Assembly (NCBI GenBank): GCA_963721685.1
Contig: CAVRJJ010000005.1
Coordinates: forward strand, 1-37,942
DNA from: an uncultured bacterium
GTDB taxonomy: Bacteria > Patescibacteriota > Saccharimonadia > UBA4664 > SCTI01
Length of the DNA stretch: 37,942 nt
Reading direction: 5' to 3'
Shown: one piece after another, positions 490-33,929 of the stretch
Position numbering within the stretch: the first letter of the stretch is position 1
Layout: every line of letters begins with the position of its first letter
The notes under the pieces: generated by a model
Told to the model about the DNA's origin: nothing
The model's database searches: none
What the model saw: the letters and a program-made list of their open reading frames with translations, nothing else
Program-made: the position numbers and the translations under genes

Positions 490-835
490 GAATTAAACGC
501 GGTGTAACCACCCACGCTAAGCATAAAAAACTGCGCGCCCAGACAAAAGGCATGAGCCACATGCGGCGTGCCAGCGTCCGGATGGCCCGCCAAGCTGTGT
601 TAAAAGCGCTTTCCTACGCCTACCGCGACCGCCGCAATAAAAAGCGCGACCTCCGCTCGCTGTGGATTATCCGTATAAACGCCGCTCTTACCGAGCACAA
701 TTTATCTTATAGCAAGTTCATGGGCTATGCTAACGCGTCAAAGATTCGCTTGACCGAAAGATTCTGGCCGAATTAGCCGTTAATCATCCCGCCGCCTTCA
801 AGGCTGTGGTAGAAAAAGTCAAAACCGCCCAATAA
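486..835 (+). CDS. rplT: 50S ribosomal protein L20; frame interrupted by an apparent 1-nt deletion near 752/753
   Basis: ORF 486..776 matches L20 up to ..SYSKFMGYANASKIRL, then runs out of frame (TERFWPN*). The +1 frame from 755 reads RKILAELAVNHPAAFKAVVEKVKTAQ* with its stop at 833..835, which is the expected L20 C-terminus. TTGACC is present where TTGGACC would restore L-D-R-K-I-L. Confidence 0.85.
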
Positions 836-872
836 CTCGAGTAGCCTTATCCTCTATTACTGCGCAGGTGTA

Positions 873-937
873 TCAGATTTGATGCTAATCTGCGGCAAAT
901 CTGATGCGATTTAGCATCAATTTAGCATCAAATCTGC
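873..937. terminator. long inverted repeat between convergent rplT and the DUF1304 gene; putative bidirectional terminator
   Basis: CAGATTTGATGCTAA (874..888) is perfectly complementary to TTAGCATCAAATCTG (922..936). TTAGCATCAA is also directly repeated at 911..920 and 922..931. No clean U-tract. Confidence 0.4.
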
Positions 938-945
938 CATAGATT

Positions 946-1314
946 TTAAAAACTTTTAAACACTACCACGAAAATAAGAGCCGCGGCCGCGGGCAAAGCC
1001 TGTATAAGCAAAATGCGTTTCATAGCCGTTAGCCCGCCAACCAGCCCAGCGATAACTACACAGGACAGAAAGAAAACTTGAAGCTGAAAGGCCAATGGGT
1101 CTGAAACCACCAGCGACCAGGCCAAGCCCCCCGCTAAAAACAAGTTATAGACGCCTTGGTTGATCGCCATGACGTGCGTGGTTGCCGCCTGTTCCGACGT
1201 GGTGTTAAAGGCCTTCCTGCCGATCGCGGTGTTCCATAAAAATGCCTCTAGAATGAAGAAATATACATGAAGCAGCGCGATAAGGCCAATTAAAATAATA
1301 ATGAATGTGCTCAT
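946..1314 (-). CDS. small integral membrane protein, DUF1304-like
   Basis: 122 aa with four hydrophobic segments. The N-terminal pattern LIALLHVYFFILEAFLW...NQGVYNLFLAGGL resembles the DUF1304 family, from memory. Confidence 0.65.
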   Translation of the reverse strand: MSTFIIILIGLIALLHVYFFILEAFLWNTAIGRKAFNTTSEQAATTHVMAINQGVYNLFLAGGLAWSLVVSDPLAFQLQVFFLSCVVIAGLVGGLTAMKRILLIQALPAAAALIFVVVFKSF

Positions 1315-2429
1315 TATTTATTTACTCCCTCCTCAAGCTTTTTGTTTACAAACTGCTGTATCTTCTTAATAAAGATTGCTTGGTCATACCCTTCGGCATG
1401 GGTCCGGATTTTAGCGGCCTCATACGACTCCGGTTTAAACGCTTGCAAAGCGACCTTAAGCGACTCCACCGTTTGTTCCGCAAAAAAGCTGCCCGTTGTT
1501 CCATCAACAACAGTTTCCAGCGCTCCTCCCTTGGCAAAGGCAATAACCGGCGTACCGCAAGCCATGGCTTCCAGCGGGGTCAACCCGAAATCCTCCTCGC
1601 CCGTAAAGATGAAGGCTTTGGCCTGGCCTAATTCTTCAGCAATTTGGGCGTCATCCAGCCGCCCTGAAAAACGGACGGAGGGACCTGCCATTGCTTGAAG
1701 TCTAGCAAGCTCACTGCCATCACCAATCACATTTAACGGCAAGTTTAACTCGGTGCAGGCCTGAACCGCTAAATCCACCCGCTTGTAAGGTATGAGCCGC
1801 GAAACCACAACAAAACCGCTGCGCGGGCCATGATGCACTTTGAATCGTTTTACATCTATCGGCGGGTTGATCACTTCTGATTCCCGCCGGTAAAATTTAG
1901 CAATACGGCTACTAACATACTGAGAGTTAGCCACAAACGCGTCGACCCGCTGAGCAGCCGCGAAATCCCATATCCGCATCCGCCTCACTAAACCAGGCAT
2001 TACCAGCTTAACTAAGGGCGAAAGCAGCCCAAAGCCGGTGTTTTGACGGTAGTAACTGTAATCGCTCCAATAATACCGGGTTGGGGTATGACAGTATGAC
2101 ACATGCAGGCAGTCCGGTTTGGTAACAATGCCTTTCGCCTCAGCCGAAGAAGACGAAATCACGACATCGTAGCCGCTAAAATCAAACGCCTCAAAGGCTA
2201 GAGTGCGCATCCAGGGGAAGAACTGGTGCTTGGTTTTGGCAAGCGGCCAACGTTGCAAAAAGGATGTCCGTACATCAAGCTGAGCGAACTGCGGCAAGGC
2301 TTCGGCATTAAAAACCGAGGTGTAAATAGGGGCTTCGGGATAAGCCGTATGCAGCGCCCATACCACACGCTCTCCCCCGCCCTGATTAGTAAGCCAATCG
2401 TGGACAATCGCGACTCTGGGTTCAGCCAT
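1314..2429 (-). CDS. glycosyltransferase, GT4 (GT-B fold) family
   Basis: 371 aa. The N-terminus VAIVHDWLTNQGGGERV and the C-terminal FIFTGEEDFGLTPLEAMACGTPVIA (E-x7-E-like motif) are typical of GT4 enzymes. Its ATG overlaps the stop of the upstream sugar-transferase remnant (TAATG). Confidence 0.85.
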   Translation of the reverse strand: MAEPRVAIVHDWLTNQGGGERVVWALHTAYPEAPIYTSVFNAEALPQFAQLDVRTSFLQRWPLAKTKHQFFPWMRTLAFEAFDFSGYDVVISSSSAEAKGIVTKPDCLHVSYCHTPTRYYWSDYSYYRQNTGFGLLSPLVKLVMPGLVRRMRIWDFAAAQRVDAFVANSQYVSSRIAKFYRRESEVINPPIDVKRFKVHHGPRSGFVVVSRLIPYKRVDLAVQACTELNLPLNVIGDGSELARLQAMAGPSVRFSGRLDDAQIAEELGQAKAFIFTGEEDFGLTPLEAMACGTPVIAFAKGGALETVVDGTTGSFFAEQTVESLKVALQAFKPESYEAAKIRTHAEGYDQAIFIKKIQQFVNKKLEEGVNK

Positions 2430-3895
2430 TAATGCGCTCCCTGGCGGGTTAGCACAATTACAACTGTCCGCAGAATAATCTTAATATCAAGCCATAAACT
2501 CCAATTTTCAATGTAATAAATATCTAATTTTGACCCGCTCATCGTAGCTTACGTCGCTGCGTCCGGATACCTGCCATAACCCGGTTAAACCCGGGTTTCA
2601 GTGAAAGTAGGGTTGGACGGCCAGTACCATAACGTTCCAGTTCTCCCGGCACGATCGGACGCGGCCCTACCATACTGATATCGCCCCGCAGGATATTCAA
2701 CAGTTGAGGCAGCTCGTCCAGGCTCGTGCGGCGTAAATACGCCCCTATCTTGCTTACCCGGGGGTCGTCCTTAACCTTTTGGTCGCGCTCAAACTCTTCA
2801 ACCAAGTCCGGGCGGCCCAGTTCAGCAAAAATCTCCACCTCATTTTTGCCTTTGTATTTCTCGGCCGTGGCAAACTCCTGGCGCATAGAACGAAATTTAT
2901 ATACGCGGATCGACTTGCCTATCCGGCTCAGCCGCTTGTGGCTGTAAAAGACCGGGCCAGGATCGGTAAACTTAATCAACAACGCTATAACCAGGAAAGA
3001 CTGGCGACAGCACAATCAGCCCAGCCAGCGACGCGACAGCGTCGAACAAACGTTTTACGATCCTGCCCCATCCATCGAGCGGCGTCCGCTTCATGGCTAC
3101 CATCGGCATGCCAGCCAATGTGCCAAGTTCAGAATGGGTGGCGAACAATCCAAATTGATTGGGCACGAACCGGTAAGTAATGTGGTGGTTAGCGGCGTAT
3201 TCCACAATCTCAAATACTTCCTCCGGCCCAAGCGATGAGTCGGCCTGGATAAACTCATCGATCTTACCGCCATGTAAGCGATTTAAGCAGGTTGGTTAAC
3301 GAGAGGTCAACCCGAAAGGAGCTCATTCGTTTTTGAGCGCCTTTAGCGGTATCAATTACGCCTATAACCTCATACCCGGACCGGCTGCGCTGGTTGAGTG
3401 CAGCCGCCAGCTGCTGCGCCAAAACCCCGCTTCCGATTATCACTACTTTATAAATACCAACTCCCTGACGAAACAGTCGGCGTTGGATCGCCGCGCACCA
3501 ATAGCCGCCCTACCACCACCGTGACCAGGCTTAAGCCATAGGCGTAAACCGGCACGGCCTTGGAAGGGAAGATTGGGGCTTCTACTAAGAAAGTCGAGGA
3601 CTATCATAAACATCACCCCGGACGACACCGCCACAAAGATCGATTTAAGCTCCCACAGCCGACCGCGCTGGCTTGAGAGGTTATAGAGACCATTGACCGC
3701 GAAGAACAAAATCCACACCGGAATAACCAACAAGAATATTTGCAGGAAGAATTCAATGCCTAGATGGATTGGCCACGGGACGTTCGTCGATCTTTAACCC
3801 GCAAGGCGTAAGCCATCACGAAGGCAGACAGGATTGCCAGGAAATCAATTGGCAGATAGTATAAGGCTGAAAAATAATTCGCTTCGTTTACGCAT
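2429..3895 (-). pseudogene. polyprenyl glycosylphosphotransferase (bacterial sugar transferase, WbaP/WcaJ-like) broken by multiple frameshifts
   Basis: The minus-strand translation gives a complete protein only by switching frame at least 9 times. Recognisable parts are MRKRSELFFSLIL.., PIDFLAILSAFVMAYALRV, VVIIGSGVLAQQLAAAL, KFTDPGPVFYSHKRLSRIGKSIRVYKFRSM, DELPQLLNILRGDISMVGPRP, TGLWQVSGRSDVSYDERV and DIYYIENWSLWLDIKIILRTV. The ORF track shows only fragments (2539..3015, 2972..3205, 3443..3733). Confidence 0.8.
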
Positions 3896-3957: not shown

Positions 3958-3959
3958 AG

Positions 3960-4360
3960 CTTAAGGTTGCCTGTAAGCCGGATTCTGTCCTCCGCGTAAA
4001 CGCGGATGTATGGCCATCTATCTTGCCGTGACGTTACCGTCACGGTCACGCGGCACGTACGCTGATTGGAGCGAGCACTCCCCTGTTGCCAGGTGAACCA
4101 GCAGCCTTGCAGCAGACGGGGTTTACCTCCCTCCCATGTCACCATAGGAGGCTGTGGGCTTTTACCCCACTCGTTTCACCCTTACCTCACGGGTGTGGGG
4201 CGGTATCGTTTCTGTGGCACTTTCCCTAGGCTTGGGCGGCGCTGTTTTCTCGAGAGAAACACCGTCGCTTACTCCCGGTTGCCGTTAACAACCGTCCTGC
4301 TCTATGCTGTCCGGACTTTCCTCTGGTGGTTTAAGCCAGCGACCATCCAGCAACCTTAGC
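3960..4360 (-). ncRNA. rnpB: RNase P RNA, bacterial type A
   Basis: The reverse complement contains the universal blocks GGAAAGTCCGGAC, GGTAAGGGTGAAA, GGTAAACCCC and ACAGAATCCGGCTTA. A terminal P1 pairing forms between AAGGTTGC (4350..4357) and GCAACCTT (3963..3970). Confidence 0.85.
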
Positions 4361-4391: not shown

Positions 4392-5078
4392 TCAAGTTGT
4401 TACGACAATGCTGAGCACCCCGTTAGCCAATGGCCAACGGGGTGCGGTTGACAGAAGGAGACTGCACCTTTCGCGACCAGCAAACAGGTTGGGCAAAAGC
4501 GCTTTCAGCGCCGGCACCCATTCGCCATTCCCAAAACGATCCCTCAGAGCCATGGCCGTGGGATCGCCTGGCTTCCGCAAGCGGTCATACTCGGTAAGCG
4601 AGAATGTTCTCCCGATAAGATGACTTACACGTCGTGCAGCAGCTTCACACTCTCCGTCAGTGTAGCGTTGATAGGGTGGCCCTGGTAGCTGCGGCTTTAA
4701 CCCTGCCGCCTCAACCCACCAGTTCCATCCTTCCGCTCGTCGCAAAAGCGACGAAGATGGCCACTCTTTGTGAGACACGCGGAGACGGTCGTAGTCTTTG
4801 ATACTGATCTGCCCGCCATTGAGGCGAGCGGCTTCCTTCACGGCAGCAATTTTCTGCTCTCTGGTATACCTCGGCGGACCACTGTCCGATCGGCGGTTTG
4901 CCCTCCACTGCCGCCACAGGCTCTCCGGGACTCCGGACAGTAGACGTCGAAACTCGGGTTCGACTAGACCAAGCTCGTCCCTTATTTCGCGTTTACTCCA
5001 GCGGGCTTCAAGAAGAGCAGCCAAGCGCTCATGGATGCCGGCTTCCGAATCAGTTGGACGTGACGCGGTGATAGCCAT
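4392..5078 (-). CDS. hypothetical protein with two tandem ~60-aa repeats (homing-endonuclease-associated-repeat-like)
   Basis: 228 aa. Internal repeat: YTREQKIAAVKEAARLNGGQISIKDYDRLR..WPSSSLLRRAEGWNWWVEAAGL versus YTDGECEAAARRVSHLIGRTFSLTEYDRLR..PTAMALRDRFGNGEWVPALKALL. The sequence is visibly richer in G+C than its flanks (not computed). Confidence 0.6.
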   Translation of the reverse strand: MAITASRPTDSEAGIHERLAALLEARWSKREIRDELGLVEPEFRRLLSGVPESLWRQWRANRRSDSGPPRYTREQKIAAVKEAARLNGGQISIKDYDRLRVSHKEWPSSSLLRRAEGWNWWVEAAGLKPQLPGPPYQRYTDGECEAAARRVSHLIGRTFSLTEYDRLRKPGDPTAMALRDRFGNGEWVPALKALLPNLFAGRERCSLLLSTAPRWPLANGVLSIVVTT

Positions 5079-5142: not shown

Positions 5143-5586
5143 CTAAATAGCGTTATGGGCGGCTTCGTCGAGGGCTTTGTTTACCTCGGTGTCAGCTAAA
5201 TGGTTTTTACCCCGTAAAACATGTTCAAAACTTACTTCGCAGCCTTCCGCCAGCTTTTTTACCTGATGAAACAGCGGCTGCAGGTCGGGATGCTTCACCC
5301 GATACTGGCCGTTGAGCTGCTTGACGACAAGTTCGCTATCAAGCAGGAACTGAATTGAGGCAGGATGGTATTTCTTGGCAGCCTCGAGGCCAGCAATGAC
5401 ACCGCTATATTCGGCGAAGTTGTTGGTGCCTTCGCCAAGATACTTACCAAAAGATTCTAAATGCCGGCCATCCGGTGTGGCAATTACAACACCAATCGCC
5501 GCAGGGCCGGGATTGCCACGAGATCCCCCATCGGTGTTAATTACCAGATTGGCTTCGCGGTTAACCGCGTTAATTAATTGACTCAT
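5143..5586 (-). CDS. rnhA: ribonuclease HI (RNase H type 1)
   Basis: 147 aa. The motifs INTDGGSRGNPGPAAIGVV, NNFAEYSGVIAGLE and NHLADTEVNKALD give the DEDD RNase H pattern. Confidence 0.85.
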   Translation of the reverse strand: MSQLINAVNREANLVINTDGGSRGNPGPAAIGVVIATPDGRHLESFGKYLGEGTNNFAEYSGVIAGLEAAKKYHPASIQFLLDSELVVKQLNGQYRVKHPDLQPLFHQVKKLAEGCEVSFEHVLRGKNHLADTEVNKALDEAAHNAI

Positions 5587-5640
5587 ATCTGGTTATTCTA
5601 CGATATTTGATCGAAATGGTCAAAAATGGGACAACCAGAC

Positions 5641-5739
5641 GCCTGGTGGAGGCACCGGGAATCGAACCCGGCCGACTTGAGTCGCAATCACGTCGCGACA
5701 CCAGTCTGTACCCCTAAAAGACACACCGTACCACCAGGC
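5641..5739 (-). ncRNA. orphan tRNA-like element (degenerate tRNA, or tmRNA tRNA-like-domain-like mini RNA)
   Basis: The minus strand ends with the T-arm CCGGG-TTCGATT-CCCGG (5655..5671), the acceptor 3' strand TGCCTCC (5648..5654), discriminator A and CCA (5644..5646). The 5' partner is AGGGGTA (5709..5715; 6/7 pairs, with G3:U70) or GGTGGTA (5729..5735; 6/7 pairs). No canonical D or anticodon arm could be drawn. Confidence 0.4.
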
Positions 5740-5867
5740 ACTTTTATGATATCGATTTCAAATTAAACTAAGATTAAACTGGACGATTTCGTTGAAAAAA
5801 ATTCCGTGGAGAGCTAAAATAATAATTGACTTGGGTCGCAATCCGGATCGCGGCATTAGCCGTACAC

Positions 5868-5898
5868 AAAAAGAGCAGCACAAGCTGCTCTTTTTTTT
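5868..5898 (-). terminator. rho-independent terminator after tRNA-Pro (bidirectional form)
   Basis: GAGCAGC-ACAA-GCTGCTC hairpin (5873..5890) flanked by AAAAA and TTTTTTTT. Confidence 0.7.
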
Positions 5899-5912: not shown

Positions 5913-5988
5913 TGGTCGGGGTGACAGGACTTGAACCTGCGACCTTACGGCCCCCAGCCGCACGCGCTACCAACTGCGCCACACCCCG
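5913..5988 (-). tRNA. tRNA-Pro (anticodon GGG), CCA encoded
   Basis: Hand-folded cloverleaf: CGGGGTG TG GCGC AGTTGGT AGCGC G TGCGG CTGGGGG CCGTA AGGTC GCAGG TTCAAGT CCTGT CACCCCG A CCA. Confidence 0.92.
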
Positions 5989-19691: not shown

Positions 19692-20813
19692 ATGTTGACC
19701 CAACAAATCGCGGAAGCAATTCATGCCAAAGTCGGGACGCTGGTCAACCAGTCATTATCACTGGTTGATGGCGATGGCCAGATTCTGGTAAGCAACGACC
19801 CCCAGGCCGGGAGCAGCTTAATTGTTGAGGACTACCCTAACGCGATTAGCATATCCCACAATGGCCGCGTAACCGGTTATGTGGTGTTAGCCCGGGAAGT
19901 TCCCAATTATGATGAGATATCACCCCTTATCCGCTCTATCGCCGAACTGATGATGCACCAAGCACTTCTTATTGAGCAACTTCCCCACCACGAGGAGCAG
20001 CTTGATAAATTTGTGTATGACCTTCTCACGAGCAGCAACCTGGACCAGCCAACACTACTGGCCGAAGCGCGGCTGCATAACCTGGATTTAACCCAGCCTC
20101 GCATTTGCATCGTAATTTACGTTGACGACCCGGTGCTTACCGGCGAAACCCCCGATGACAGCAACCGTGAAATGCTCATTACCCGTTATAAGTTTGGCAT
20201 TAACCGCGGTCTTGAATCATATTACACCTCTAGCCGGAACAACATTATCGCTTATCTTGGCCATAACAGCTTTTGCATCTTAAAAGACTTAAGCGGCCCC
20301 CAAGATGAGATGCCGCTGGAGGACGCCTTGGACCGGTTTAAAAAATCCATTAATACCATTTACACGATTTTTCGCTCGGAGCTGAAGCAACCCACCACCG
20401 TGGGTATCGGCAACTACCATCCGGGAATTGAAGGCCTGCGCAAGAGTTACCAGGAAGCGGTGAGCGCCATTGAGCTCGGCTCCCAGAACTGGTACAAAAA
20501 CCGCGTTTACCATATTGATGACTTCGGGGTGGTTGCCCCCCTGCTTTCCGGGATTGATGAAAGCAACATCTACTTTAGCCGGGAGCTGCTGGACCGTCTG
20601 GGGCAAAGTGAAGGGATTATTCAAACCCTGGAAAGTTTTTTCACCCACAATATGGGATTAACTCAAACCGCCAATGAGCTTGGCATCCACCGCAACACAC
20701 TGGTATACCGGCTCGACCGCATAGCTGAAACCCTCCAGCTCGACCCCCGTAATTTTGATGATGCCGTGCAAATTAAACTAGCGATTCTTTTTAATCGCTT
20801 TGTGGAACATTAA
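19692..20813 (+). CDS. CdaR/PucR-family transcriptional regulator (paralog 1)
   Basis: 373 aa. The C-terminal HTH LTQTANELGIHRNTLVYRLDRIAETLQLDPRNFDDAVQIKLAILF is the PucR-type HTH. The N-terminus resembles the sugar-diacid-recognition domain. Confidence 0.75.
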   Translation: MLTQQIAEAIHAKVGTLVNQSLSLVDGDGQILVSNDPQAGSSLIVEDYPNAISISHNGRVTGYVVLAREVPNYDEISPLIRSIAELMMHQALLIEQLPHHEEQLDKFVYDLLTSSNLDQPTLLAEARLHNLDLTQPRICIVIYVDDPVLTGETPDDSNREMLITRYKFGINRGLESYYTSSRNNIIAYLGHNSFCILKDLSGPQDEMPLEDALDRFKKSINTIYTIFRSELKQPTTVGIGNYHPGIEGLRKSYQEAVSAIELGSQNWYKNRVYHIDDFGVVAPLLSGIDESNIYFSRELLDRLGQSEGIIQTLESFFTHNMGLTQTANELGIHRNTLVYRLDRIAETLQLDPRNFDDAVQIKLAILFNRFVEH

Positions 20814-21980
20814 ATGCGTCTTACCCCCGGTGTGGCAGCAGAAATTGTAAGCCGGGCACGATTAGTGCTTAAACGAGAGGTTATTGTTACCGATTCCCGG
20901 GGCGCGGTCCTTAAAGACGGGGGGCACGAGCACAAGACTATGGTTGACGCCTTACGCGCCTGCCAGGAAGGCCGGGTCATCCGCGCCGAACTTGATGATG
21001 AGCTGGTTGCCTGGTGCCCGTTTGTCTACGAGAACCAAACGGTAGGATCCTTTGGCATTGTTGAAGAAAGTGTGAGGATTACCCCGGAAGCGATTGGCTT
21101 GCTGCAGGGGCTGGCCGAGGTGATCGTCCACCAGCATTTCTTGCTTGATCATATCCAACCTACCGAAAAAATGCGGGCTACCTTTTTGCAGCAAGTGCTC
21201 TCTTCGGGAAAAATTAACAGTACCGAGGCCTACCGCCAAGCCGACATATTACAGATGAACCTGCGGGTGCCGCAAGCAATCATCCTGGTTGAGCTAGAAG
21301 GCATTGAGACCACCGCCACAAAAGGATCCCCATCCGCGGAAGCTGCAACCAGCCAAATAGATAAGGAGACCGGAAAGGTTCGCCAGGTTATCGTTGACGC
21401 GTTTCAAGATAATGGCGTTATATGCAGCTATAACGGCAAAAACCAGTTTGTGGTTTCAAAAAGCATTACCGGCGAAAACCTCACCACCCGCAATACTACC
21501 CGGTTTCTCATGGAAAAGGCCGCCTACTTGTACGATGTCTTACGCAAGGCTTTTCCCGACCGCGTCATAACCCTAGGGGTTGGGCAGTATTATCCTGACC
21601 TTGGCGGCTTACGAAAAAGCTTCCAAGAAGCCAAGCTAGCACTGAGCGTAGGCAGCAAGGTGTGGGAAAGCGGCCGAACCTACCACATAAAACAGGTAGG
21701 CATGTACGTCACCCTCGCCAATGTGGCACAGGAGCACAAGGCCGAACTGGCCCATCAAATCCTTCATCCCTTGCTGCAGGATGACCAGCTCTATAAGACC
21801 GTGCAAACCTTCTTAACTGCCGGCTTAAACTTAACTGAAGCGGCCGAACAGCTCCACGTTCACCGCAATACCTTGATTTACCGGCTCGATAAGACCAAAA
21901 AGATTATCGGTTTGGATCCGCGGGTGTTTGATGACGCCCTGCAGATTAAACTAGGCCTGATGTTTTACCAGGAAGCCTAG
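20814..21980 (+). CDS. CdaR/PucR-family transcriptional regulator (paralog 2)
   Basis: 388 aa. It has the same architecture, with LTEAAEQLHVHRNTLIYRLDKTKKIIGLDPRVFDDALQIKLGLMF. Its start codon directly follows the stop of paralog 1. Confidence 0.75.
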   Translation: MRLTPGVAAEIVSRARLVLKREVIVTDSRGAVLKDGGHEHKTMVDALRACQEGRVIRAELDDELVAWCPFVYENQTVGSFGIVEESVRITPEAIGLLQGLAEVIVHQHFLLDHIQPTEKMRATFLQQVLSSGKINSTEAYRQADILQMNLRVPQAIILVELEGIETTATKGSPSAEAATSQIDKETGKVRQVIVDAFQDNGVICSYNGKNQFVVSKSITGENLTTRNTTRFLMEKAAYLYDVLRKAFPDRVITLGVGQYYPDLGGLRKSFQEAKLALSVGSKVWESGRTYHIKQVGMYVTLANVAQEHKAELAHQILHPLLQDDQLYKTVQTFLTAGLNLTEAAEQLHVHRNTLIYRLDKTKKIIGLDPRVFDDALQIKLGLMFYQEA

Positions 21981-26007: not shown

Positions 26008-26036
26008 TTGACAGTTCGGTTTTTGTTCGGTATATT
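26008..26036 (+). promoter_or_regulatory. sigma-70-type promoter (TTGACA, 17-nt spacer, TATATT)
   Basis: TTGACA at 26008..26013 and TATATT at 26031..26036 have an exact 17-nt spacer. They lie about 30 nt upstream of the AAGGAG RBS and ATG of the next gene. Confidence 0.55.
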
Positions 26037-26067
26037 CAACGTAAGGGATGCTTCTAAAGGAGTAAAG

Positions 26068-26487
26068 ATGGTAAAATCATCATCAATCAAGCACCTGCGG
26101 GTTTACCAGACCAGCCTGCAGCTGGAGGATATAATTCACGAGCTGGTGAAAAAATTACCGGAAAATGAGGTTTACTTCCTAGGTAATGAGCTTCGGCGCA
26201 GCAGCACTGCAATTTCCCACCATCTCTACGCGTTTTATCGGCATCATAATTATCGGCTACGGCTCCAAGCGCTCCATTTAGCACGGAAGGAGGCCGAGGG
26301 CCTCCAAAAACTACTTCTCACCTACCAAAAAGCCGGCTACGGCCCAATTAGTCATATCGATGGATTTTGCGTAAGCGTAATAAAACAGTGCTGGGGTCTT
26401 ATTAAGTACTACAAGCAACAAGAGTCAACCCAGCACGCTCGAGCCTCCATTAGGGCGAGCGATGAGCTGGTAGCTGCCCGCGCGTAG
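26068..26487 (+). CDS. four-helix-bundle protein (23S rRNA intervening-sequence protein family)
   Basis: From the ATG at 26068 (AAGGAG RBS): LRVYQTSLQLEDIIHELVKKLPENEVYFLGNELRRSSTAISHHL ... LHLARKEAEGLQKLL. This fits the family pattern, from memory. Confidence 0.6.
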   Translation: MVKSSSIKHLRVYQTSLQLEDIIHELVKKLPENEVYFLGNELRRSSTAISHHLYAFYRHHNYRLRLQALHLARKEAEGLQKLLLTYQKAGYGPISHIDGFCVSVIKQCWGLIKYYKQQESTQHARASIRASDELVAARA

Positions 26488-32967: not shown

Positions 32968-33929
32968 ATGGTTACGGTAAAAGCACAGTCCCAGCAGATC
33001 ACGAATCATGTAGTCATGGTCAGTCCCGACCAGTTTGGCTTTAACCCGCAAACCGCGGAAAGTAATGTGTTTCAGCACGATTTCGAGGATCAAGGATATT
33101 CGCCTACGGACGTGCAGCGACGGGCACGTTCAGAATTTGACGACCATGGTTCAAACACTTCGGGACAACGGCATAACCGTCTCCGTACTGCCAAGCCCCG
33201 CTGGCGTTAATGTCCCGGACGCCGTTTTCCCCAATAACTGGTTTTCCCACCACCAGGATGGGAACGCTTATTGTATATCCCATGCTTACGGAAAACCGGC
33301 GGGCCGAACGCCAACCTGAGGCAGTGGCCAGCCTTTTAGAACACCTTGGGGCTAAGCCAGCAGAAATTATAGATTTAACCGCGCAAGAACTTAAAGGCAA
33401 CTTTTTAGAGGGCACCGGCAGCTTGGTATTAGACCGAGTACACAAGGTAGCCTTTGCCATGCAATCGCCCCGCACTACCACAGCGGCTCTGGAGTTATGG
33501 AGCAAAACCATGGGCTATGAACCATTTTTATTTCATGCTTACGACAAACATTCCCGGCCGCTTTATCACACCAATGTGTTCATGAATATTGGCGAAGGCT
33601 TCGCGGTTGCCTGTCCGGAGTCAATCGCTAGTGACGAAGAACGGCAAAGCTTCATCAGAAAGCTTGGATCGCTGGGTAAGGAGCTAATAGCCATTTCCCT
33701 TGATCAAGCCTACGGGTTCTGCGGCAATGTTCTTCAGCTGAAATCAAAAGATGGCTCAGCGAAGATCGTCCTTTCGGAAACCGCATTACACGCACTCTCC
33801 ACCCATCAGCGGGAACAACTCCGAAAGCACGGCCAATTAGTTACCATTGCGATCCCAACCATTGAAGCTGTCGGCGGTGGCGGGGTGAGGTGTATGATGG
33901 CGGAGATATTTCCACCTAGCCCCCGGTAA
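32968..33929 (+). pseudogene. amidinotransferase-fold protein (arginine-deiminase-related / CtlX-like), two frameshifts
   Basis: Three consecutive frames together give one protein. The pieces are MVTVKAQSQQITNHVVMVSPDQFGFNPQTAESNVFQ..ARSEFDD, then MVQTLRDNGITVSVLPSP..PDAVFPNNWFSHHQDG, then TLIVYPMLTENRRAER...AVGGGGVRCMMAEIF (catalytic Cys motif). The frame shifts lie near 33140 and 33262. Confidence 0.7.

Follow-up and report, generated by a model that had tools for sequence, protein, structure and literature searches.

We analysed a stretch of DNA of 37,942 nucleotides from an uncultured bacterium of the Saccharimonadia (contig CAVRJJ010000005.1 of assembly GCA_963721685.1, hereafter the window), on the minus strand of which (5739..5641) an earlier note, made from the letters alone, had described a small tRNA-like RNA. 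Every feature described there was present base for base. The element is a member of a conserved, multi-copy RNA family of soil Saccharimonadia that is real and apparently undescribed, and comparison of the homologous sequences makes it very likely that this is a family of genes for tRNA-like RNAs with alanine identity. The note had proposed three origins for the element: a decayed tRNA or transfer-messenger RNA (tmRNA) gene (ssrA), an ssrA gene collapsed during assembly, and a genuine small tRNA-like RNA of alanine type. The conserved family supports the third, and the first two fell.

Homologues and integrity of the element

Pattern scans retrieved 20 distinct homologues, carried by seven metagenome-assembled genomes (MAGs) of Saccharimonadales/Patescibacteria and by ten metagenome contigs from soil or peat; a single genome can hold as many as three copies. 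Two of them, at separate places on one 543-kb MAG contig, were picked up with the 5' half as query, and a third lies close by in the opposite orientation; the remaining six MAGs and the ten soil or peat contigs came from scans with the 3' half and with a gapped pattern. A covariance model (R1), built from 18 sequences and tested on 1.6 Mb of fetched loci, gave the members 94–115 bits and all other matches, namely tRNA-Ala, the 3' ends of standard tmRNAs and divergent miniature RNAs of Peribacteria, at most 36 bits. It also revealed a second family copy on contig L233. The family is not in Rfam 15, our literature searches returned no description of it, and the element had no match in cultured phages. 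The genes neighbouring the members were heterogeneous.

The window copy has an ortholog at locus L226, where the element occupies the same place upstream of a gene for an RNase H that is 89% identical to that of the window. Between the two copies, the core was invariant and the stems and the arm had undergone several compensatory substitutions. All homologues have the same short length and, because they stem from many independent projects, an artefact of a single assembler is unlikely. In addition, a 151-nt unitig from a public soil sequencing run (X2) spans positions 5646–5796 with zero mismatches, so that nothing is missing between the two halves of the element. This read-derived unitig, together with the uniform length of the homologues, led us to reject an assembly collapse.

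Five syntenic loci of related species (L001–L005; tRNA-Pro to RNase H) lack the element and had first suggested a one-off decayed remnant, a reading discarded once the pattern scans had recovered the family and the orthologous copy. More generally, the idea of a dead remnant of tRNA-Ala or ssrA produced by internal deletion, or of a collapsed ssrA, could draw on the A1.C72 mismatch of the window copy and its arm, the weakest of the family, on the empty locus of a relative whose RNase H is 88% identical (L001), and on a full tmRNA gene upstream of the RNase H gene in an AT-rich Saccharibacteria relative. However, twenty same-sized homologues with covariation and invariant functional positions reveal clear purifying selection, the ortholog evolves by compensatory changes around an invariant core, and the unitig crosses the element without mismatch. 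This explanation is therefore largely refuted, and we consider it extremely improbable. A duplicate left by an integration event was rejected as well, given that the element has its 5' acceptor strand and belongs to a conserved family.

As to the element-free relatives, L001 has a ~1-kb open reading frame (ORF) and a terminator (556–1647, plus strand) where the miniature RNA would be expected, after tRNA-Pro and ahead of RNase H; the slot 3' of tRNA-Pro(GGG) thus varies among close relatives.

A conserved tRNA-like fold

The fold was evaluated over the 18 aligned sequences with an RNAalifold consensus and explicit pair counts, using shuffles and slid alignments as controls. In the tRNA-like fold, 98.3% of the cells were paired and 17 cells had changed on both sides (0/500 shuffles), as against 37–47% paired cells in the slid controls. 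Five helices received support: an outer stem, the acceptor stem, a D-like hairpin, the base helix of a long arm and the T arm. The T arm, with 97.8% of cells paired, is nearly invariant, and in the window it stands at 5671..5655, followed by the UGCCUCC-A-CCA end (5654..5644), as the earlier note had read them. Its pairing of this end with AGGGGUA (5715..5709) also held: six of seven positions pair, with G3:U70 and an A1.C72 mismatch, closing a 72-nt molecule.

In the seven-pair acceptor stem, G3:U70 occurs in 18/18 sequences and pair 1:72 is G:C in 17/18, with pair 6:67 varying between U.G, U:A and C:G. The window copy alone has an A at position 1 (its ortholog has G1); apart from this, G1:C72, G2:C71, G3:U70, G4:C69, A73 and CCA are invariant in the family. 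We take these positions to be the full identity set of alanyl-tRNA synthetase (AlaRS). The ACCA end is found in all members, including ~13 retrieved by patterns in which the 3' end was left unspecified, and the adjacent pairs of the outer stem covary.

This outer stem is formed by the first 7–9 nt of a ~30-nt leader, which pair with A73-CCA and the trailer (consensus GCCUGGU:ACCAGGC, seven pairs in RNAalifold, 97.6% of cells paired). Compensatory changes from C:G to U:A in two sequences and from G:C to A:U in one, together with trailer-leader covariation at alignment columns 116–118, support it; leader base G8', opposite C72, is invariant. In the window, the leader segment GCCUGGUGG (5739..5731) is perfectly complementary to CCACCAGGC (5649..5641); the 9-bp pairing suspected of sequestering the CCA end is thus real and conserved. 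The leader:ACCA pairing was not present in the standard tmRNA or tRNA-Ala genes compared, and it also occurs in the Peribacteria RNAs. Most homologues can form a hairpin of 4–7 bp in the rest of the leader (GGUA-AGCA-UACC in ortholog L226). The leader motif GGUGGUAC resembles a T-box core, but only in four members and trivially so, because it is complementary to CCACCA, and we rejected a T-box-like leader.

Pairing on the downstream side may also occur. A second CUGGU in the trailer GGCGUCUGGUUG (window 5641–5661, minus strand, and ortholog L226) could pair with ACCAG, and in L087 (7205–7235, plus strand) ACCAGGC and the trailer make up a 7-bp hairpin. The CCA region may thus have a choice of partners, one on the upstream and one on the downstream side.

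The D-like hairpin has three pairs and a UGGU loop, the GG of which is likely the counterpart of G18 G19; its middle pair changes from A:U to G:C in four sequences and 98.1% of its cells are paired. The long arm has 9–10 layers, in place of the stack of D stem and anticodon stem. Its 4-bp base helix changes from G:C to A:U in seven sequences and from C:G to U:A in three. The inner part differs in almost every member and is always paired, with -8.1 kcal/mol for the strands of one member as against -4.6 kcal/mol for chimeras, and most members carry (U)UGCGA in the loop. Contrary to the claim that the element has no anticodon arm, a covariation-supported arm does occupy that position, albeit not a canonical one. 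As regards the hairpins proposed there, both GUCGCG/UGCGAC and CGAC/GUCG can form; covariation favours CGAC:GUCG with the inner stem, and the 6-bp hairpin is less supported. A fold that includes this 6-bp hairpin (GUCGCGA:UUGCGAC plus GACU:AGUC) is the minimum-energy structure of most members in isolation. Nevertheless, its helices are paired in only 82–87% of cells across the family, with few compensatory changes, as against 98% for the tRNA-like fold, which indicates that the latter is the conserved one; the former is possible as a competing conformer.

The window copy, with a core of 72 nt (5644–5715), otherwise matches the family consensus in the core, and folding of the 111-nt region gave z = -3.3. 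It may be somewhat weakened and slightly impaired, given the A1.C72 mismatch, a G.A mismatch in the arm and an arm that is the least stable in the family (-4.6 kcal/mol).

Relationship to tRNA and tmRNA and possible function

With canonical tRNAs the family shares a 7-bp acceptor stem (six of the seven pairs in the window copy), a discriminator base and a T arm whose loop follows UUCRAnY. The middle of the molecule departs from them: positions 8 and 9 are C8 A9, U8 and A14 are absent, the D-like hairpin has a 3-bp stem and 4-nt loop, and the long arm measures 8–10 bp. Positions 5644–5715 had no Rfam match at gathering thresholds, including the score of 29 for tRNA (RF00005). In E-value mode, the best match of the window copy in the tRNA clan was tRNA-Sec, with 21.7 bits against a gathering score of 47; no tmRNA matched and a Y RNA model matched locally with 17.3 bits. 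The Rfam check proposed with the element thus gave no tRNA of normal score, and the companion ARAGORN check did call one at 5644–5715, 'tRNA-Arg(gcg)'.

Such a call raises the question of an aberrant but functional decoding tRNA for alanine (or for arginine or valine, following ARAGORN), in which the extended anticodon stem would offset the reduced D arm. ARAGORN indeed labels members tRNA-Arg(GCG/ACG), tRNA-Ala(UGC) or tRNA-Val(UAC), their length of 72–75 nt is that of a tRNA, the arm is close in length to a stacked D stem and anticodon stem, and many loops contain UGC, CGC or AGC. Yet in the best pairings the loops range from 7 to 9 nt, U33 is not kept and the triplet read as 'anticodon' changes with the register. 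We rejected an anticodon reading, as neither the NGC nor the GCG register gives consistent 7-nt loops. Moreover, a valine- or arginine-type triplet on an RNA of alanine identity would cause mistranslation, neither U8 nor A14 is there, the window copy stays below the Rfam tRNA gathering score, and a canonical tRNA-Ala(UGC) (70.8 bits) lies only 290 nt from the member in L114, where a tRNA-Ile also adjoins. A decoding role is thus highly unlikely.

With that tRNA-Ala(UGC), the L114 member has its entire acceptor stem in common (GGGGGCA...UGCCUCC-A-CCA), the two RNAs share G3:U70, A73, an encoded CCA and a T loop of UUCGAxU type, and the family loop UUUGCGA is one base off the anticodon loop UUUGCAA. 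The family differs in lacking U8/A14, the 4-bp D stem with its 8–11-nt loop and the variable region, in having an arm of 8–10 bp with a 7–9-nt loop, and in the leader that masks the CCA end. D-armless mitochondrial tRNAs such as mt tRNA-Ser(AGY) (PMC4013460, PMC9427863) also have a reduced D region, for which a longer coaxial arm compensates, and a tRNA-like size; they are genuine decoders with 7-nt anticodon loops, whereas our family is bacterial and has a perfect T arm and variable loops.

The second group of likely relatives consists of the tRNA-like domains (TLD) of tmRNAs. The ends of the family, 5' GGGG...CUGG..UCG and 3' T arm-CUCCACCA, resemble such a domain. The family pattern CUGG-N-UCG(CG)AC-N-GAUUGCGA also resembles the 5' end of Escherichia coli tmRNA, CUGGAUUCGACGGGAUUUGCGA, which we take as a lead and not as a test. 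The Rfam tmRNA model was the best clan match for six other members (18–32 bits, E from 1e-9 to 7e-4), although its alignment to them rests on the acceptor stem, the T arm and CCA, which tRNA-Ala has too. In comparison with a standard tmRNA, the element has 72 nt instead of 345–430 nt and no tag reading frame, resume codon or pseudoknots: the stretch between G20 and the base that precedes the T arm has only 23 nt, folded into a simple hairpin.

Tag-less, tmRNA-like RNAs, also classed as 'Standard NoCDS' or TLD-only forms, are known as rarities from one phage (DS6A), a few organelles and endosymbionts (two Mallomonadaceae plastids, mitochondria, Nasuia) and one Patescibacteria genus, 9FT-COMBO-53-11, and an RNA reduced to the TLD inhibits tmRNA in E. 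coli (PMC11915505; PMC4131195). The family resembles them in its alanine acceptor identity (G3:U70, A73, CCA; with the extra A1.C72 in the window copy), its canonical T arm, a GG-containing D region without normal D arm, a size of ~65–75 nt and the absence of a coding part and pseudoknots. It differs from them in having several paralogues per genome, a 30-nt leader pairing with ACCA, a full-length covarying arm with the conserved (U)UGCGA loop, no UCGAC/GGAC motifs and no adjacent smpB. Since standard tmRNA is present in 5252 of 6765 Patescibacteria genomes (PMC11915505), the family probably coexists with ssrA.

Where does transcription start? Most homologues possess a TAnnAT box, often preceded by TG, 6–8 nt 5' of the outer stem, and the one low-depth metatranscriptome contig with a family member has its first base 2 nt 5' of the outer stem and extends ~155 nt beyond CCA. 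Both observations point to a transcription start at the outer stem. At the -10 box of the window copy, no full sigma-70 promoter was returned by a consensus scan.

With such a start, both ends of the primary transcript, 5' end and CCA, would be locked in a helix. In the mechanism that we propose, the leader:ACCA helix would be a precursor feature protecting or gating the ends up to the moment of processing, when RNase P would cut off the leader and the trailer would be trimmed; the freed CCA end would then be charged with alanine by AlaRS. The invariance of ACCA and of the identity positions, next to outer-stem pairs that covary, argues for a free end recognised by AlaRS in the mature RNA, and we consider processing and alanylation of the RNA probable on these comparative grounds. 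Since the RNA is probably not an ordinary decoder and its nearest relatives would be tmRNA tRNA-like domains and tRNA-Ala(UGC), a tag-less tmRNA-like role is favoured: the alanyl-RNA might act on ribosomes, either in rescue without tagging or as a modulator of rescue. This step is the least secure, and a rescue role can be put forward only tentatively from the sequences compared. For the complete chain, from an intact and independently transcribed gene to an RNA processed by RNase P, charged by AlaRS, related to tag-less tmRNA and acting on ribosomes, we see about even chances.

Together with the competing fold mentioned above, several observations weigh against this proposal. All tmRNA scores of the family fall below the gathering score of 47 (RF00023), and the window copy had no tmRNA match at E up to 10. 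The ~70 standard tmRNAs of the fetched loci carry UCGAC after the GG loop and GGAC right before the T arm, whereas the family has GUCGCGAC, GUCGCGGC or GUCGCAAU and GUCGG, GCUGG or AUCGG at these places. smpB was found in 0 of ~20 member loci, as against 42 standard ssrA loci where it is adjacent, although such adjacency is not obligatory for ssrA. Finally, a leader paired to CCA is expected to hinder RNase P. The members are, besides, called as tRNAs and not as tmRNA by ARAGORN. From the tmRNA kinship suggested in the earlier note, there remains the best clan match of the relatives; their scores are below threshold, the window copy gave no hit and the UCGAC/GGAC motifs are not kept.

One rival reading is a closed tRNA mimic, in which the leader would be kept and the uncharged ~105-nt form would be functional as a decoy or regulator of a tRNA-binding protein, for instance AlaRS, a modification enzyme or a toxin, much as Y-RNA-like tRNA mimics do. 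Its outer stem is conserved with covariation, leader base G8' is invariant, the transcript probably begins exactly at the outer helix, terminal helices joining both ends are typical of stable non-coding RNAs and the CCA pairing should disfavour RNase P. On the other hand, ACCA, A73 and G3:U70 never change while the adjacent outer-stem pairs covary, a constraint that goes beyond pairing and points to a free end that can be charged. The window contains no Ro/Rsr or other partner gene either: Pfam scans of 40 window ORFs listed no SmpB and no TROVE/Ro/Rsr family among the matches. YrlA and the Deinococcus Y RNA do resemble the family as small RNAs with a tRNA-like module, paired ends and, in the closed form, no free CCA, and the Deinococcus Y RNA model matched the hairpin and T arm of the window copy locally (17.3 bits against a gathering score of 80). 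However, the layout of YrlA is circularly permuted: its ends lie on the anticodon side and a loop closes the acceptor, in keeping with the match of the Rfam model, whereas the ends of our element close the acceptor side, ACCA is conserved and no Ro/Rsr gene is nearby. For these reasons (a permuted, Ro-associated RNA, and Rfam Y RNA models that match locally, in the T arm region only), we rejected an identity with YrlA, and we consider a closed mimic rather unlikely.

Alternatively, the RNA could be processed, charged and serve as a non-ribosomal alanine donor to a tRNA-dependent transferase, such as cell-wall enzymes of the Fem/MurM type, alanyl-phosphatidylglycerol synthase or an RqcH-type alanine-tailing factor able to read a loop like that of tRNA-Ala; the staphylococcal non-proteinogenic tRNA-Gly is an analogue of a supply kept separate from translation. 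The complete alanine identity set, a non-canonical core unlikely to decode, the likeness of the loop UUUGCGA to UUUGCAA of the tRNA-Ala(UGC) beside a member and the several paralogues per genome would fit, and the cell-wall enzymes encoded in the window, such as MurT/GatD, are circumstantial support. But no Fem, MprF-C or NFACT gene was noticed beside any member, the neighbouring genes are heterogeneous, and known non-proteinogenic tRNAs keep a normal cloverleaf, all of which makes an alanine donor quite unlikely.

Returning to the tag-less, tmRNA-like RNA, a broader speculation, doubtful as yet and drawn from sequence comparison, is that soil Saccharimonadia (and, in a divergent form, Peribacteria) keep self-masked, alanine-accepting 'pro-tRNA-like' RNAs, which would form a new class of adaptors, the size of a tRNA, that RNase P releases and that work outside normal decoding. 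If so, these adaptors would serve, for example, tag-less ribosome rescue or alanine tailing in genomes with streamlined translation-quality control, and the leader:CCA helix and the competing fold could act as a switch that sets when charging is possible. A bacterial family that is conserved, multi-copy and clear in its comparative structure would offer a tractable system for the function of tag-less tmRNA, and its CCA-pairing leader is an unusual precursor design that may reveal how charging or processing is gated. For the annotation of genomes of the candidate phyla radiation (CPR), it would represent a new structured-RNA family, the genes of which are now missed or mis-called tRNA-Arg, -Ala or -Val by ARAGORN; such calls could distort the number of tRNAs counted in Saccharimonadia MAGs and what is inferred about their codon usage.

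Other short RNAs came to light in the loci inspected. The divergent Peribacteria RNAs (L116, 1921–2545, minus; L157, 2623–2730, minus) score 30–36 bits with the family model, two of them lying in tandem ~518 nt apart; they have promoter-like boxes (TTGTCA-17-TAnAAT-like), a leader in which CCCUGGU pairs with ACCAGGG, a D-like arm of 5 bp and the loop CUYGUCA of 7 nt, and may be the published tag-less tmRNA of the Patescibacteria genus. Among the viral contigs of IMG/VR, L210, L212, L213, L216 and L219, as well as L214, L218 and L208, carry short tmRNA-like genes without coding part. These TLD-only genes keep UCGAC...GGAC, G3:U70 and CCA, some with leader-trailer pairing (CAACC...GGUUG), and are distinct from the Saccharimonadia family. 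In several near-identical, AT-rich viral contigs (L209, L215, L217, L220–L222 and L224), ARAGORN calls permuted (two-piece type) tmRNA genes.

Genomic setting in the window

The relatives of its RNase H assign the window to Saccharimonadia (TM7, Patescibacteria). On the minus strand, the gene order is tRNA-Pro(GGG), a terminator, the element, a promoter-like site, RNase H, an HNH-repeat ORF and RNase P RNA (Table 1). At gathering thresholds, Rfam called five ordinary tRNAs and the RNase P RNA in the window. The latter, of bacterial class A (236.6 bits), lies at 3958–4358, 1.3 kb downstream of the element, and its presence was counted in favour of processing by RNase P. Its proximity has another explanation: other Saccharimonadia have rnpB immediately after the gene for RNase H, and since this rnhA-rnpB order is a conserved synteny of the group, we rejected a functional link between the element and rnpB.

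Table 1 Parts of the window copy of the tRNA-like RNA gene and flanking signals
Feature	Position	Strand	Support or remark
Whole gene (leader, 72-nt tRNA-like core, first 3 trailer nt)	5641..5739	minus	Covariance model R1 match 5638-5747(-), 109.4 bits, E 2.6e-28; alignment of 18 homologues
Putative -10 box TATCAT, 6 nt 5' of the first leader base	5746..5751	minus	Inferred promoter
Leader segment GCCUGGUGG, 5' strand of outer stem	5731..5739	minus	Pairs with C71-C72-A73-C74-C75-A76-GGC, masking the CCA end
Remaining leader: weak small hairpin GGUAC-GGU-GUGUC (5732..5720) and UUUU linker (5719..5716)	5716..5732	minus	Modest support
Acceptor 5' strand AGGGGUA	5709..5715	minus	6/7 pairs, G3:U70, A1.C72 mismatch
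Mini D-like hairpin GAC-UGGU-GUC	5697..5706	minus	Middle pair covaries
Long arm at the anticodon-arm position: base helix CGAC (5695..5692):GUCG (5676..5673), inner stem G.A/UGA:UCA, 7-nt loop UUGCGAC (5687..5681)	5673..5695	minus	Covariation
Canonical T arm CCGGG-UUCGAUU-CCCGG	5655..5671	minus	Nearly invariant in the family
Acceptor 3' strand UGCCUCC (5654..5648), discriminator A (5647), encoded CCA (5646..5644)	5644..5654	minus	ACCA in all members
Trailer GGC completing the outer stem	5641..5643	minus	Covaries with leader
Hairpin terminator 3' of tRNA-Pro(GGG) (5913-5988, minus)	5868..5895	minus	Separates tRNA-Pro from the element
Promoter-like site TTGACC-17-TAGAAT of the downstream RNase H gene (5143-5586, minus)	5595..5623	minus	Also in relatives without the element

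The ORF between RNase H and rnpB (4392–5078, minus) matches HNH_repeat, a family associated with homing endonucleases, weakly and below threshold. In the AT-rich Saccharibacteria relative (L042), a standard 363-nt tmRNA gene (3006–3368, plus; 106.7 bits; tag AKKTARLQQPALVAA) lies ~630 nt upstream of the RNase H homologue, roughly in the slot of the miniature RNA, which may be a coincidence or positional homology.

Elsewhere in the window, three loci on the plus strand stand out for a small CPR genome: an ORF resembling the proteins of 23S rRNA intervening sequences (26008–26487), a tandem pair of PucR/CdaR-like regulators (19692–21980) and a protein resembling eukaryote-type dimethylarginine dimethylaminohydrolase (33210–33929).

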